A DNA stretch of 63,121 bases, the filler included, from Atractiella rhizophila (Eukaryota): the NCBI GenBank assembly GCA_021432655.1. It is 5 parts of 5 records of this genome, joined end to end, with 100 filler letters (N's around TTAATTAATTAA, not from the genome) between each part and the next. Parts side by side here need not be neighbours in the genome. Positions count along the whole stretch, not along the records: positions 1 to 30,684 come from MU271210.1; 4 more parts are not named here. One strand, written 5' to 3'. A model generated the notes under the pieces. The model saw only the letters and a list, made by a program, of their open reading frames with translations, made no database searches and was not told the origin of the DNA. A program made the position numbers and the translations under genes. Shown in pieces: positions 11,069 to 47,416 of this stretch (position 1 is its first letter; every line of letters begins with the position of its first letter).

Positions 11069-12825
11069 ATGGCTGGTCCTTCCTTCTTCCAAAGAGCGCT
11101 CAACGTCCCTCCATCGACGACGAAGACGACGACATTCCACCAGAATTGGGACCCATACGATTACGAAGAACAGCGCGATATGGTGTTCGCAAGCCTGTTT
11201 GGTCGCCCTCTCCCCATCCCTCGCCCTCCACCGTGGATAGAACCACCTCCAATGTTCGAGAGTGAAGAGCGACAGCAAATTATGAGGCCGAAGAACCCGC
11301 TTGCCAATCTTGCGACCCTTCCTCCGGAACTCCTCGTCTACCTTCTAGATACTTGTGTCTTCCTTGACACGTTCGAGTACGAGTCGACTCTGAATCATTC
11401 CCCCATGCGTTACCTCCATCGTGGGGAAACTGCCTGTCCAGTCGCTTGGGAAACTCCCTATGTCTTAGGAGAAGACATTTCGAGCGATAGCGTCAACTTT
11501 TTGGGTGTCGATAAGAGTGATAGTATCGTGTTGAGCGTGAAAAAGAGGTGGGAACGTGTCAAGGCGCTACAGAGATGTTGTAAACGTGTTGCTGGGCTTT
11601 GTTACGCCGTTCTCTGGAAGGTGAGTTGTCCATTTCCTCCCAGAGAGAGAGAAAGTGCTCAAAGTAGAAGTAGGACGTCGATTTATCTCACGCTTCTCTC
11701 TCTTCTCTCGAATCGTTCTTCAAGATGTCCCAAGAAAATGTCACTCAACACGTCCAGAACATCGCCTTCTCCTTGACGCCAACTTACTCCGCCTACGTCC
11801 AACATGAATCAGCCGGCTTCGCACCTCGAAGTTTACGATATGAACAAATCGGACGTATCCTTCGCTCCCTCCCAAACCTCAAAAACGTCTCCTGTCAAAT
11901 CCGCACCAACGTTTCCCACGGACTCTTCACCGACCTCGCCATCTACGGGACAAAATTAACCAAGTTCGTGCTCGAGCCTCATGAGCGTGTCTTGGCCAGC
12001 GATCTCGAGTGGCTGTTCATCCGTTCGCCCAATCTCAAGCACGTCGCTTTGTCAAAAGTCGATCCGTCTGGACCAGTGGGCAGAACATGGGATCAAGTCG
12101 GCGACACTTCTTTTCTCCTTCGCATCCTAGCAGACTTACGACACCTTGAAGTACTCGATCTTTGCGATTGTCTCTTCCTCACCGATGAATCCCTCACTCT
12201 GCTGCCTTCTGACCCGTTCCCGACACTTAAACGACTCCTTCTCCCTTACAACGTTAATTTTTCATGTTCAGCCTTTCATACTCTCGTTTGCTACCCGAAC
12301 ATCTCAAAGAACGTCGAGTGCCTGTCTGCAGGTCCGTTTTCGCAAGACGAGTACGAGTACTGTCTCAAACAACTCAGTGTCAAGAAAAGCGGGAAGATGA
12401 TCCTGTCAGATTTCAAGACCCAATTCGCCAACCTCCACTCGATCAGAATGATAGAGGACTACTCCTTCCTCTACTTCGCCACTATCCTACAAGATGAAGT
12501 TTGCGAACGGATAGAAAACATTTGCCTTTTTCGACCTCCAGGGAGTCTGAGTCCAGACATCGTTACGCGAAAGTTTGGAAAAGCGAAAAGGGTGTGGAGT
12601 TGTGGACAGTGGGGTTTGGAGGACGGTGAGTGGTGGGATAGAGACGAGGACGAAAAGGTGCTTTACAAACAGTTCCATCCAGAATCCAATGAAGAGGCGG
12701 AATGCTGTGGACATGGACAAGGCAGGAGGGCGTTGGGAGAAGGCGATCCAAATATTTTGGCAAAAAATGCAGGGACCAAAGCAGAGAAGAAGATAGTCAT
12801 GCTCAACGATTTTTTCCATATATAA
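11069..12825 (+). CDS. F-box / RNI-like LRR protein
   Basis: F-box-like LATLPPELLVYLLD...ALQRCCKRVAGLCYAVLWK; one intron (about 11621-11673); LRR-like units LPNLKNVS, SPNLKHVALS, LRHLEVLDLCDC, FPTLKRLLL. Confidence 0.7.
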
Positions 12826-12934
12826 ACCATTCTTTTCATTTTCCTTTCCAAACAATGTATTTAGGACTTTTGTGGATTCTGTTTCGATACTAGATTCATG
12901 AGATATTTTACTGATGAGGACATTTTGGACATTT

Positions 12935-14762
12935 TCAAGCATCCCATTCGTTGCTTTCCAACTCTCCACCTTCCCTCCATCTCCAAACTTCATACTTATG
13001 GTTTAACCCTCCATCCTCATGTACGCTCAGAACCGTCCCACAACCTCCACTCCCTACACTTTGTACTCGATATAGGAGGCATGAAATCCTTGAATGGAGA
13101 AGAGCCATCGAGCAATAGATGCACGGTTCGTGAGACGTGAAGACGGTGAGTGTGGTGAGGAGATAGGGTATTTTAGGTACGTCGGCGGTTGGTGTCGTAG
13201 CACCACTGCCATCCCCTTTTGCGCTCGTGCCAGCAAACGGCGTCGATGATCCCATCGGAGTGTTGGACTTGGATGGTGTGACCCGTAAGCCGTTACGGTC
13301 TAGAGCAGCAACGGCGTCGATGACATTGCTGAACGAGTGACAGAGCGTGTTTCCAGTTGATTTTCGGGTGTCCTTTCCAACGGCAACGATACTTGGTACG
13401 TTGTCAGGGAAGCAATGGATGCTGTCATCCCAGGGGTCCGTGACGAGACAGGCGATGGGAACCTGAACATTAACTCAGCTTCAGGAGGTGATACATGCCT
13501 AACATGAATCAACAGAACGAACCTCTCCTTCGTTTTCCGCCTCAACGGCAAGTTCCATAACACGCTTCATCATATCCCTACACCACTCGACTCTTCCCCT
13601 CTTCCAACCGAAGGTCCTATCCCTTTCTCTCTTTCTATCGAGAAAGCCCATTGGCCAAATTTTTCCCCAATCCACCCACTGTTCCTTGCTTCTAGCAGGT
13701 GCAGCTGGCACTTTTAGCTTATATACCGAATTTCCTACGAGAGGAGAAGCACTGATGGTTTCTTCCACGACAGAAAGATCTGTAGTGCACGGATGCAGGA
13801 GGATGGAAACGGTGTTGGCACTTTCGTTCTTGCGCACTCGCTTCAAGTGAGCAAATGGTGAAGCCGATTCTGATTCCCCTTCAACACTCGACGGGGCAGA
13901 AAGGGCGAAAGGGCGACTTCGGGTGAGCTTGAACGCCTCAGGTGTTAGAGGGGGCGGAATATCGATGGCCCAGAATTCCACTACGCCACCTTTAGCACAA
14001 TGAAGCGAGAAAGAGAGAAAGGTCTACCTAATGACAATGGTGGATCAACATCTGAGAATTGGGTAATCTTATGGAACGGCATAGACTCGAACAGGACCAA
14101 ATCATCATTTGTCTCTCCTGGAGCAAACACCTCATTCGACTGTTCTCGTAAGTTTGAACTGGACGCTTGGATGAGACTTTCTAAATCTCCAAAGTCGAGC
14201 AAGCCGTCGTCCTTCGGATTATCAACAGCTAGGCGCGGCGCCGGATCGTAGTTGACGTGCGCTCCGTAGAAAATACATAATTCTTCCCCTTTTTCTACAT
14301 CTTTACAAGTTGTGTATCGAATGACCTTCTTCTCTCTGAGCAGCTCATACGTGACATTAGGCGACGTGTCGTGGTTAAACAGACTCCCTTCATCACTTTT
14401 CAGCCATCTCATCACAAAACAAGAAAGAACGCACCTAGCCCAAGGGAAAGAGCCATCTCTCCCATCTTTCCCCAACTGAAGACGTAGTCTTTGAGGAGAT
14501 TGTCATCGGCCTTCATCTTTTGATAAGCGTCCTTCGAGAAGACGAGAACGGGTGCGAGCTCCACCACAGTTCCTTTCTTCAGTGCTTGACGAGCAAACAC
14601 TCCCCTGCCCTTTTTAGGGACTTCCAACACTCGCGACGCGAGGGGATTGACCCTCACGTCATCGAGCGCTCCATCGTCAGTAACGTCACCATCTTGGAGC
14701 AGTCCGTTTGCGGGCTCATCTTGAACATTGGTGGTGGTGTTGGTTGGATCGGTGGTGGACAT
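12935..14762 (-). CDS. TAD3: Fusion of an N-terminal SET domain and tRNA adenosine-34 deaminase non-catalytic subunit Tad3/ADAT3
   Basis: SET motifs: KGRGVFA, LGLGSLFNHDTSPNV, KGEELCIFYG. Tad3 motifs: AHLKRVRK, VPAAPARSKEQW..W..IWP, NTLCHSFSNVID (His without catalytic Glu), PYLLTTLTVFTSHEPCIYCSMALLHSRI, LNHKYEVWRW. The two parts join in frame across a 47-nt GT-AG intron at 13981-14027. Confidence 0.85.
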
Positions 14763-15093
14763 AGAGGTAGGGATAGAACCACTGGTGATGATGCTGATAC
14801 TACTGTTGATGCTGCTGAAACTGTCCCATTTCCTAATGTGAAAAGGTAGAAAAAAAAGGGGGAAAACGTACAGATCATTTTGAAGCTTCTGTATCATGTA
14901 AACCCTTTAAAACCAGCCTTATCGCGTTAAAATCGCCCCTCCAATAAGGAACGCAAGGACTGCTCTCGTTGAAATTCTCGCTTAGGCTTGCTGCGGAATC
15001 TGGGGCACAAACATCACCAAGCGAGCCTTGTTCCACCCACGAGCATCAGGTTCAGCTTAGGAGCAGCACAGGAACAGCAGAAACTCACTTAAA

Positions 15094-18004
15094 ATGACTA
15101 GCGACAAGCAAAAACACAAGGCGAGCAAGCTGGAACAATTCCAACTCCCGCAAGATCCAAACGCGCCGGACATAATTCGACTCGTACATAGATTCGCTGC
15201 AGTCGTGGATGCTTTCCCTTCAAATTTAATGAAGACACTGGGAGACCTTAAGGAGCTGGACGCTGTTCTTAATGGTGCGCTTTTTATTTGGTCTGGCGTG
15301 ATTTGGGTGTCCGGTGAATATTGGCAACGGAGAACTGGGGAGACACTTTTTGTCACGCAACAGGTGGAGGAGACGTGAGATCTCTTGCGGTCCCTTCTTA
15401 CTACTGCAGACATCGAGCGTCTCTGCCAGTTTGATTGAACTCGTGGACAAAAAATCGATTTTAAAGTAAAGTGATCGGTTCTGCAACATCTGCCTTCCTT
15501 CTCGAACCTTTTTACCCACGGAACAGGCGAGTTTGGAGCATATTTCCATGTACCTATGCCTAATAAACATGACACCGTCGAGTTTGGTCGATAGTTGATT
15601 TTAGAGCAATTGTCAGCTGTCTTGCGCAGCAATAATGCTCGCCTATTCACAGCCTGCCTTGATGCATTGTTGCAATATGGTGACATCAACACAATTTGTT
15701 TTGTGTCGACCTTTTATTGTGGAATGGTTAGAGCATCCTAAAACGTCTTGTGTGATTTTACACTTTGGGGCGAAGATTCCTCTTCCTACCATGCTCTAGG
15801 AATCCAAGGAGTACTCTTGTCCTGAAAACATGTTATCCAATGTTTTCGATGCAGATGGCGAGGTTCGAGATAGAGCTATCGAGTTGAACTGGCGGTACGA
15901 ACAAAATCTCTTCAACATTACCTTGTTTGGCGATTACGTAGTGGCCTAGTCATGTGCTCCTGTGGTAACCACGTCCCGGCATTCTGTCCACCTGGACTCT
16001 GCAGTCTGTCTTCACTATGTAGAGCGACAGCTAACTTGCTTGTAGTGTCCTTATCGAGTCTTACCGATAGTCTGCACGACTTTGAAGGAATCATAGACGC
16101 GTATGAAGCTGACCGTTTACTGCGGTTGAAAACGGCCGCCTCCGCTGCCTCTGCTTCAGCGACCGCACCAACATCAGTTTCACCAAAACCGGAAGTGGTA
16201 CCAGCACCAATCGCAGAACGGGAATCCGAGTTGCCTGCGATGGATGTTGACCCCATCTTGCCTACGCAACTCCATCAAGATGCGAATACTTTGCCCTCAG
16301 AGCAGTCCAACCCAACAAACGTAGAATCAAAGGTTGCCGAGACTGCGACGCCACAATTGGAAAGGCTCAAAAAATTGAGAGAGCTAGCGGACTTAGTGAG
16401 GAAGATCAGACCGACCGCTGACGAGCGAGGGCTTGTTGCTTTGCGTGGCGTTGAAGTGGTGCGTTTTCTTACATTTTTTAGTATTGGGTGTACATAGCGT
16501 GATGATTGTTTTTCAACTGCATAGGTTCGATCGCAAACCCACTCACTTGACGTGATCTCGACAATGCTGACGGCGCTCCTACCGCCGTCCATTTTGCCCA
16601 AGCTTCCCGCTCCATCCACTCCGCAAGGATACCCGCGGCTATTTGCGCCTTACAAGAGCTATTCGCACAACTCGACCCAACTCAAACTGCCCAGCGCCGT
16701 TGGGACGGAAGGCTTTCCTTTGAATATGGGTGAATTGAACAACGAGCTGTACAATCTCCCTCTTCCGCTCGTGCCGCAAGCTGCAGCACCTAACGGGAAA
16801 GGTGTGAACCTCAAAAACGCACCTGCGACGAGCAAAACGCCGGGTGCGAGTGGCGGTGGCGCCAAGAAACCTGCGACGGGAGCAAAGAGGACGACTAATA
16901 ATTCGAATGTCAACAATGCTACTTCTTCTCGAGGAATCAATGCGAATGGGACTGCTCAATCTCCTACCAGCTCCGCTTACGGCGCTGCGGCTGTCCCTCC
17001 TCCTTCGCGGCGAGGGGGAAGGACAACTCGCACTTCTACTGCTGACAGCAATCCGCCGTCGATTGCTCCGAAAGGGAGTAGCCAGCCCCATCGAAGTTCA
17101 AATCTGAATCCGAATTCTGAGAGGGGGGAGAGAGGAAGAGCAGCAAGCATTGGAGGTGCGAGTCCTGTCGTTGGAGGAGGGAAAGAAGAGGGTAGGAAAA
17201 GAACAAGGGGAAGAAGTCCGTTGCAGGAAAGGGAGGATGATGGATCGAATAAAAGGAAGAAGAAGAAGTATTTATTTTCTCCTCCATTCGCTATGGCTGA
17301 ATGAGCTTCTAAGTGGGGGCACTAGTTCGTCAGCCTCAGCTGACCCTCCAGATGTGCCGTCAACGGATTATACTCCTGCAACCACAGCGGCGCCTCAAGC
17401 GATTCCCGTATCGTATCCATTGACAAACGTTGTTCCAGTCACCCAACCTCCCCCACAATCAATCTGGAATATGGACATATCCATGCCACGAGGGCCTGAG
17501 GGCTATCCACCGCCAACTTACGACGACCCAGCTTGGGGCACTCCAGCAAATTGGCGGCCAGGGACCATTCCCGGGGGAATGTCACCCGTTGTTGGCATGG
17601 GGAGTATGTCTAACCAGACGAGCCCTACAAGTTATCCAATCCATCCGCCCCCCAGTACGCCAAAGCACACGGAAGATGAGGGAGAACGCAAGGAGTGGTG
17701 TTTTTGTGAGGGGAGAGGACACGGAGATGAGATGGTGGGGTGCGACAATGAGAAGAGCTGCGACATTGAATGGGTACGTTTAGTCCATCACCTTAACGCG
17801 TATAAACTAAGGATGCAACTGTAGTACCATCTTAGCTGTCTTGGTTTGAAAGCAGTACCACAGGGCCATTGGATTTGCCCAGAATGTATTCGCAAAGGAG
17901 TCGGAAAGAAGAGTGCGGCAGGAAACGGGAGGAGAAAGGCGCATCAAAGGAATGGGAATGGCACGAATGGGACAACCGCAGGAACCGTTGTTGCAGCAAA
18001 CTAG
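15094..18004 (+). CDS. ING-family PHD-finger chromatin protein (Pho23/Yng-like)
   Basis: N-terminal ING motif VDAFPSNLMKTLGDLKELDAVL; C-terminal PHD WCFCEGRGHGDEMVGCDNEKSCDIEWYHLSCLGLKAVPQGHWICPEC; first intron is 771 nt (15275-16045). Confidence 0.88.
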
Positions 18005-35177: not shown

Positions 35178-35249
35178 GGGGAGCTAGTTTAGTGGTATAA
35201 CATTCGTTTCGCATACGAAAGGTCTGGGGTTCGATTCCCCAGTTCTCCA
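35178..35249 (+). tRNA. tRNA-Ala(CGC)
   Basis: Cloverleaf with acceptor stem GGGGAGC/GTTCTCC and a G3:U70 pair; anticodon arm TTCGT-TT-CGC-AT-ACGAA; T arm CTGGG-GTTCGATT-CCCAG region; followed by a T5 Pol III terminator. Confidence 0.95.
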
Positions 35250-47331: not shown

Positions 47332-47416
47332 CTCTCCTTAGCTCAGTTGGAAGAGCATCAGACTGTAATTGGCTTGTGGTATCTGGGTGTCCTCGGTTCG
47401 ATCCCGAGAGGGGAGA
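47332..47416 (+). tRNA. tRNA-Tyr(GTA) with 12-nt intron (47369-47380)
   Basis: Acceptor stem CTCTCCT/AGGGGAG; D arm GCTC-AGTTGGAA-GAGC; anticodon TCAGA-CT-GTA-A|intron|A-TCTGG; T arm CTCGG-TTCGATC-CCGAG; T6 terminator. Confidence 0.95.

Follow-up and report, generated by a model that had tools for sequence, protein, structure and literature searches.

Decoding in eukaryotes depends on wobble inosine, which is made by Tad2/Tad3 through the conversion of A34 to I in tRNA anticodons. In Trypanosoma brucei, ADAT2/3 works with the tRNA methyltransferase Trm140, and this functional link between a deaminase complex and a methyltransferase offers a parallel to the gene described here, although Trm140 is a separate m3C RNA methyltransferase of another fold and not a fused SET domain. 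The direct precedent comes from Iyer, Zhang, Rogozin and Aravind (Nucleic Acids Research, 2011; PMC3239186), whose passages on Tad3 describe basidiomycete forms with an N-terminal SET domain, exemplified by Cryptococcus CNBC2910, and propose for them either the methylation of RNA-editing proteins or an unrecognised modified base. In this study, we have analysed a stretch of 63,121 nucleotides (nt), filler included, from the genome of Atractiella rhizophila (GCA_021432655.1; positions 1 to 30,684 come from MU271210.1), hereafter the window, in which a gene on the minus strand, at 14762-12935, joins a SET domain to Tad3. We consider it highly probable that this is one gene giving one spliced mRNA and one SET-Tad3 polypeptide of 557 or 585 amino acids (aa), in which a SET activity would be tethered to the deaminase subunit. 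The fusion had been put forward by a sequence-only reading of the locus, and it is now backed by the annotated protein, by spliced contigs, by sequence and fold matches, and by conservation across Basidiomycota.

As in the proteins of Iyer et al., an N-terminal SET domain is followed by a Tad3 without the Glu of the HxE motif, in the same phylum and with the same proposed roles; the earlier description differs in being computational only and in listing, in its passages on the fusion, no member of Atractiellomycetes, the group within Pucciniomycotina and Basidiomycota to which a taxonomy lookup assigns A. rhizophila. The novelty implied by the sequence-only reading is not borne out, since those same passages (PMC3239186) already hold both the architecture and the same functional proposal. 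The SET-Tad3 fusion is already known, and the A. rhizophila copy is one more member of a widely annotated architecture. Full-text searches of one literature library found neither an experimental study of the fusion nor any other paper treating it, and a 2026 review with Tad3 and a SET domain was rejected, as 'Tad3' means something else there. What is added here to the 2011 account is the splicing, the relationship to Set7, the position of the domain boundary, the conservation statistics, and a 5′ intron with an upstream ATG.

Each half of the protein also has described counterparts that stand alone. For the SET half, these are represented by Schizosaccharomyces pombe Set7 (5h6z/5ww0), a compact, SET-only protein that is both the best sequence hit and a fold match; it is a standalone chain of 169 residues, whereas here the SET domain is tethered to Tad3, and the likeness is that of a one-way match. 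The title of PDB entry 5h6z calls Set7 a histone methyltransferase, and a title by Shen et al. from 2019 reportedly names it as an H3K37 methyltransferase. In a phylogeny of fungal SET proteins (PMC9692433), S. pombe SET7 is assigned to 'Group 19'; with 0 occurrences of the word 'deaminase', that paper does not discuss the fusion. For the other half, yeast Tad3 and the ADAT3 proteins of mouse and T. brucei (7bv5, 7nz7 and 8aw3) share an N-domain followed by a deaminase-like domain with the H..PCxxC signature and without the catalytic Glu, but they are standalone chains of ~317-369 residues that carry no methyltransferase module. The HLKRVR motif of the A. rhizophila protein aligns in mouse ADAT3, and because the mouse protein has this motif without having a SET domain, it is not a target signature specific to SET. 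In the case of Fusarium graminearum, TAD3 is an orthologue of Tad3 in which variation of the N-terminal region alters function, as summarised in the relevant part of a 2024 review (PMC11156358), although this ascomycete protein has no SET domain. That part of the review describes Fusarium Tad2/Tad3 as driving sexual-stage mRNA editing by means of short isoforms, which upholds, for Fusarium, the role in ascomycete mRNA editing that the sequence-only reading had named. It also describes the mRNA editing reported from basidiomycetes as artefactual, and for that reason a link between the fused gene and mRNA editing is weakened.

The exons of the A. rhizophila gene were found by a stop-to-stop frame listing of the reverse complement of 15000-12800, and Logan contigs of four public runs (X18, X1, X2 and X3) were placed on 12600-15100. 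The record describes X3 as a metatranscriptomic library of RNA and gives no kind for X18 and X1; no study is named for X18, and X1 and X3 belong to other studies. From 5′ to 3′ along the gene, the features are the following.

14872..14974, minus strand: 5′ mRNA exon; the true 5′ end lies at or beyond 14974, the X1 contig reaching 87 nt and the X2 contig 103 nt past the joint.
14821..14871, minus strand: leader intron of 51 nt (GTACGT..CAG); the joint 14820->14872 (CT..AC on the plus strand) is seen in X18, X1 and X2.
14435..14820, minus strand: exon with the annotated start (ATG 14762), aa 1-109 and the first base of the codon for G110; it encodes a disordered N-terminal stretch and, with GRGVFA, the first half of SET.
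14388..14434, minus strand: intron within the SET domain, 47 nt (GTGCGT..AAG), splitting the codon of G110; a joint skipping the 47 nt is seen in X18.
14028..14387, minus strand: exon for the second half of the SET domain (SLFNHD and EELCIFYG, to aa 151), for an acidic linker that is disordered (aa 152-~194) and for the strands with which the Tad3 N-domain opens (aa ~200-229).
13981..14027, minus strand: junction intron, 47 nt (GTAGAC..TAG), phase 1, splitting the codon of V230.
13523..13980, minus strand: exon for aa 230-382, the N-terminal domain of Tad3/ADAT3, in which the motif H274-L275-K-R is invariant.
13463..13522, minus strand: intron of 60 nt (GTTCGT..CAG), phase 0; joints skipping the 60 nt are seen in X18 and X1.
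12935..13462, minus strand: last exon, with the Tad3 deaminase-like domain, aa 383-557, and the stop TGA 12937-12935.

The four coding exons (14762-14435, 14387-14028, 13980-13523 and 13462-12935) join into a coding sequence of 1674 nt, that is 557 codons and the TGA. The motifs by which the sequence-only reading had recognised the SET domain are all present on the minus strand: GRGVFA lies at aa 52-57 and GEELCIFYG at aa 143-151, and LGSLFNH, which spans the split codon of G110, becomes readable only once the first 47-nt intron (14434-14388) is removed, the frame then being open up to the donor at 14027. The claimed 47-nt GT-AG intron and its unspliced stop also match in coordinates, join and reading frame, as removal of 14027-13981 joins PPLSL to VEFWAIDIP at V230 and retention ends the frame at the TAG at 13983-13981. 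The description of a full Tad3 with HSF in place of HAE and an intact PCIYC agrees with the last exon, where H424-S-F is found at 13339-13331 and E-P-C-I-Y-C (aa 494-499) at 13129-13112, P-C-I-Y-C occupying 13126-13112. A query with this exon retrieved an NCBI protein of 557 aa, 'cytidine deaminase-like protein [Atractiella rhizophila]' (P0001), which is 100% identical over the exon. The full sequence of P0001 is identical to the joined exon model, with the same length and all of the motifs, and so the deposited annotation already has the fused form.

The contigs show the junction intron spliced out. The joint 13980->14028, which is CT..AC on the plus strand and therefore GT..AG on the strand of the gene, is carried by one contig each of X18 (shorter side 160 nt), X1 (112 nt) and X3 (118 nt), three of the four runs; X2 has no contig at the junction and is uninformative there. 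Among the contigs of the four runs, none was found that covers the inside of any coding intron, the junction intron included, and the depth of X18 in the bins with the three coding-region introns is, by our arithmetic, the amount expected from their exonic parts alone. A chain of X18 contigs with 30-nt overlaps runs along 13821-14820, beginning in the Tad3 N-domain, crossing the SET half and reaching the 5′ leader, broken only at a two-allele bubble at 14167-14290, and an X18 contig spans 14434-14820, which takes in the exon with the annotated ATG. The splicing check that the sequence-only reading had suggested was in this way run on contigs, with precise removal of 13981-14027 in X18, X1 and X3; the scenario that it had named as contrary to a fusion, with separate transcripts, a SET part that terminates at the unspliced stop and a Tad3 that starts independently, is not borne out, as no contig covers the intron. 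At 14167-14290, X18 holds two variants with depths of 59.7 and 39.6 and 5 differing positions. Together with several further half-depth differences in the contigs, these variants suggest two alleles, two nuclei or a sample of mixed origin.

The leader intron bears on the start of the protein. The contigs spliced at this intron reach at least 14958-14974, and the first ATG in the spliced leader, at 14897-14895, shares the reading frame of the annotated start (ATG 14762), with a stop of that frame lying ahead of it at 14909-14907. A start at ATG 14897 would give a frame of 585 aa, against 557 aa from 14762. An out-of-frame ATG at 14878-14876 opens a frame of 57 codons that overlaps the annotated start. 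The region of the upstream ATG is not conserved, and a model made with AlphaFold 2 (AF2) predicts disorder for residues 1-34 of the annotated protein. The gene model is correct save for a possible N-terminal extension of 28 codons.

The N-terminal half matches the Pfam SET family (PF00856) with 56.1 bits, against a cut-off of 22.4, over aa 52-151 and the full profile (1-105). In a PDB sequence search, the best hit is S. pombe 'SET domain-containing protein 7' (5h6z), which aligns with aa 41-159 at an E-value of 6e-24, and the viral vSET is matched at E 1e-12. Foldseek, run on the AF2 model, aligns Set7 (5h6z_A) over 119 columns, with a template-modelling (TM) score of 0.85 of the target and a root-mean-square deviation of 2.2 Å. 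There are no pre-SET or post-SET domains, and the disordered linker follows the SET domain directly. The motifs GxG, NH and ELxxxY, which we take to be the cofactor and catalytic motifs of SET domains, are represented by G52-R-G54, N114-H115, E145 and Y150, and 64 of 66 fused proteins retain all seven residues tested (G52, R53, G54, N114, H115, E145 and Y150). By these matches, the SET half is a compact, Set7-type SET domain of ~110 residues with its catalytic motifs intact, and we infer that it is an active lysine methyltransferase dependent on S-adenosylmethionine.

Concerning the C-terminal half, the PDB sequence search placed it nearer to ADAT3/Tad3 chains than to ADAT2. T. brucei ADAT3 (8aw3_3) is matched at 2.8e-15, mouse ADAT3 at 2.6e-13 (9hmm_B) and 7.4e-13 (7nz7_B), and yeast Tad3 (7bv5_C) at E 1.8e-9; the chains of the catalytic ADAT2 give weaker values (8aw3_2, 1.5e-5; 3dh1, 1.7e-4; 7nz7_A, 8e-4). 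By fold, Foldseek on the AF2 model returns yeast Tad3 (7bv5_D) first, over 350 columns, and the mouse and T. brucei ADAT3 chains next. HMMER aligns aa 273-400 weakly with the N-part of mouse ADAT3 (independent E-value 0.94), HLKRVR included. The zinc ligands H424, P495-C496 and C499 are present, and the H, C and C are kept in 66/66 fused proteins, in none of which (0/66) the column of the HxE Glu holds this residue (A in 26, V in 25, I in 11, others in 4; here, H424-S-F). On these comparisons, the C-terminal ~350 residues are the A. rhizophila Tad3/ADAT3, lacking the catalytic Glu. No second Atractiella Tad3 was found among the Tad3-like matches of 308-2000 aa or of 306-975 aa in the protein searches; as neither search returned another, the fused gene is probably the sole Tad3 of the cell.

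The boundary between the halves was drawn from the AF2 model, which was built on 66 fused relatives (mean predicted local distance difference test value, pLDDT, 74.2; predicted TM score 0.58). The SET domain is confident at aa 42-151, the linker at aa 152-194 has a pLDDT <50, and a confident two-domain Tad3 body begins at about aa 200. The predicted fold of the Tad3 N-domain begins ~30 codons upstream of the junction intron, which interrupts codon 230, and therefore the intron lies inside the Tad3 N-domain and not between two genes. With this fold, SET and Tad3 could not be divided cleanly into genes of their own. A complex prediction with the SET part (aa 36-165) and the Tad3 part (aa 198-557), run without an alignment, returned a score of 0.02 and a mark of 0.34, values that speak neither for nor against a docking of the halves.

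The fused form is widespread. The domain content of database hits was classified by local phmmer. With the last exon as the query, 37 proteins of 308-2000 aa were retrieved, and 25 of them hold SET and both Tad3 parts, the remaining 12/37 having the Tad3 parts alone; with the whole protein as the query (E <= 1e-10, 306-975 aa), both halves are found in 60 of 62 hits and SET alone in 2/62. The guess in the sequence-only reading that the fusion might occur in other basidiomycetes was right. An exhaustive search of representatives gave 4457 proteins at E <= 0.001, 49 of them at 1e-30, and SET with at least one Tad3 part is present in 39 of the best 150 of the 4457. The named fused proteins come from Microbotryomycetes (Microbotryum, Rhodotorula, Sporobolomyces, Rhodosporidiobolus, Meredithblackwellia and Phenoliferia), from many Agaricomycetes (e.g., Schizophyllum, Mycena, Suillus, Russula, Ganoderma and Gloeophyllum) and, in Ustilaginomycotina, from Jaminaea rosea. 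By its annotated members, the SET-Tad3 architecture is present in Pucciniomycotina, Ustilaginomycotina and Agaricomycetes, that is, in three subphyla. Among the 66 fused proteins (2145 pairs), the SET half has a mean pairwise identity of 61% and the Tad3 half one of 44%, and the SET half is, judged by these identities, under the stronger constraint. The pairwise identities of the two halves correlate with r = 0.89, a value that partly reflects shared ancestry and is no test of co-evolution.

Several observations weigh against reading the locus as a single fused protein with a Tad3 half. The Pfam profile dCMP_cyt_deam_1 reaches 21.0 bits, under its cut-off of 25; this is a generic deaminase profile that does not define Tad3, and the assignment is carried instead by the matches in PDB and by fold. 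The RNA evidence consists wholly of Logan contigs, by which transcript starts, ends and abundance are not shown, and overlapping contigs are no proof of a single molecule. X18 possibly comes from the project of the annotation itself and would then not be independent of the gene model. The fused polypeptide is a predicted product, known from DNA and contigs. Finally, Tad3-alone proteins of 321-377 aa are annotated in some basidiomycetes (P0022, P0029, P0035 and P0036). The Amanita (P0035) and Crassisporium (P0036) models start inside the linker, at the DDxWGGL motif conserved there or just past it, and that of Botryobasidium (P0029) starts just beyond DDxWGGL, at an LPF motif; because P0035 and P0036 begin within the conserved linker, such models look truncated or split, and we infer that the Tad3-alone annotations are truncated or split gene models. 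Two Lentinus tigrinus strains (P0034 and P0037) have a fused protein of 549 aa and one of 338 aa, the latter consisting of the deaminase part with an unrelated-looking tail, a difference that represents a gene-model or assembly discrepancy.

The best-surviving alternative accepts the fusion as real and takes the SET domain for a histone H3 (K37) methyltransferase like that of S. pombe, with no mechanistic link to tRNA editing, so that the fusion would serve only to co-express or co-localise two nuclear activities. We give this explanation a minority chance, but a substantial one. The closest solved relative, by both sequence and fold, is S. pombe Set7 with its title of histone methyltransferase, and no separate Set7-like protein of Atractiella was seen among the short SET matches (61 candidates, a weak indication). 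This search for short SET-only proteins gave 34 matches from the 61 candidates, mostly fragments, the named ones being basidiomycete pieces, two of which are labelled 'tRNA-specific adenosine deaminase 3' by the Joint Genome Institute; S. pombe Set7 itself is absent from the matches, and they are uninformative on standalone Set7 relatives in other phyla. An incidental fusion, on the other hand, would not be expected to last across three subphyla together with a conserved linker motif.

It is improbable, although less so than the alternatives that follow, that the gene makes two products, the SET-Tad3 protein and a Tad3-only form from an internal start such as M212, with the short form doing the essential tRNA editing. 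A precedent that counts in its favour, and so against a single fused product, is the TAD3 of Fusarium, which has long and stage-specific short isoforms according to the part of the 2024 review that deals with them (PMC11156358). M212 (codon 14082-14080, in exon 14028..14387) sits where the Tad3 N-domain is predicted to begin, the Botryobasidium model P0029 begins with a Met at the aligned position, and contigs do not show starts. M212 is the sole in-frame Met between the SET domain and the junction, and of the 66 fused proteins 55 have Leu in its column, 9 have Phe and only 1 has Met; therefore there is no conserved internal start. Moreover, the gene has no intergenic space, and conservation is higher in the SET half than in the Tad3 half.

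That the join is an artefact of the gene model or of read-through, with adjacent SET and Tad3 genes bridged by a fortuitous intron, is very improbable and has been largely refuted. The donor, GTAGAC, does not look strong, and the two L. tigrinus annotations differ in length. Against this, the spliced joint occurs in three of the four runs with no contig over the intron, the predicted Tad3 fold begins upstream of it, and differing annotation pipelines give the fused form in dozens of species. Fused open reading frames (ORFs) are also found on short Logan contigs (e.g., P0211, 490 aa; longest contig, 1593 nt), which would fit intron-free cDNA. The alternative of Iyer et al., as worded in their passages on the fusion (PMC3239186), that the SET domain builds a modified RNA base with a lysine-like amine near the wobble position, is hardly credible here, the nearest relatives by sequence and by fold being protein lysine methyltransferases.

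The gene has close neighbours on both sides. A converging plus-strand ORF at 11674-12825 (383 aa, no Pfam family) has its stop ~110 nt from that of the SET-Tad3 gene (gap 12826-12934), and because one X18 contig (12600-13455) crosses both, their 3′ ends probably overlap. A divergent plus-strand gene starts from an ATG at 15094, ~120 nt away from position 14974, where the contigs of the SET-Tad3 mRNA reach furthest in the 5′ direction; its first exon, of 63 aa, matched no Pfam family. The SET-Tad3 gene and this divergent gene would share a very short promoter region. Elsewhere in the window, ARAGORN places tRNA-Ala(CGC) and tRNA-Leu(TAA) genes on the plus strand, at 35178-35249 and 47332-47416; because neither has A34, they are not ADAT substrates. 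There are 377 N letters (assembly gaps) in 30685-61958.

Returning to the single SET-Tad3 polypeptide, the features described above are consistent with a model of how it may work. By analogy with the known complexes, the Tad3 body would pair with Tad2 as its catalytically dead partner and position the tRNA for A34 deamination. The SET module would hang on the ~45-residue disordered, acidic linker, and this tether would keep it beside the Tad2/Tad3 complex, where it may methylate a protein met at the complex. Lysine methylation would in this way be coupled to deamination. Our best guess for the substrate, a tentative one, is a lysine of the editing complex itself or of a protein associated with tRNA or translation. 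More doubtful still is the wider proposal that the physiological substrate of the Set7 family is the Tad2/Tad3 complex or a neighbouring protein, and not, or not only, histone H3; the identity of the SET half (61% on average), compared with that of the essential Tad3 half (44%), would fit this proposal.

The value of the present finding is mainly confirmatory, with a splice prediction that proved exact. A methyltransferase permanently tethered to the non-catalytic Tad3 throughout a phylum, as was noticed 15 years ago, implies a regulatory or modification step. If the proposal for the Set7 family is true, the fusion would be a 'Rosetta stone' for this family, the role in gametogenesis reported for the standalone Set7 of fission yeast would be recast, and lysine methylation would tune wobble inosine and, through it, codon-biased translation.

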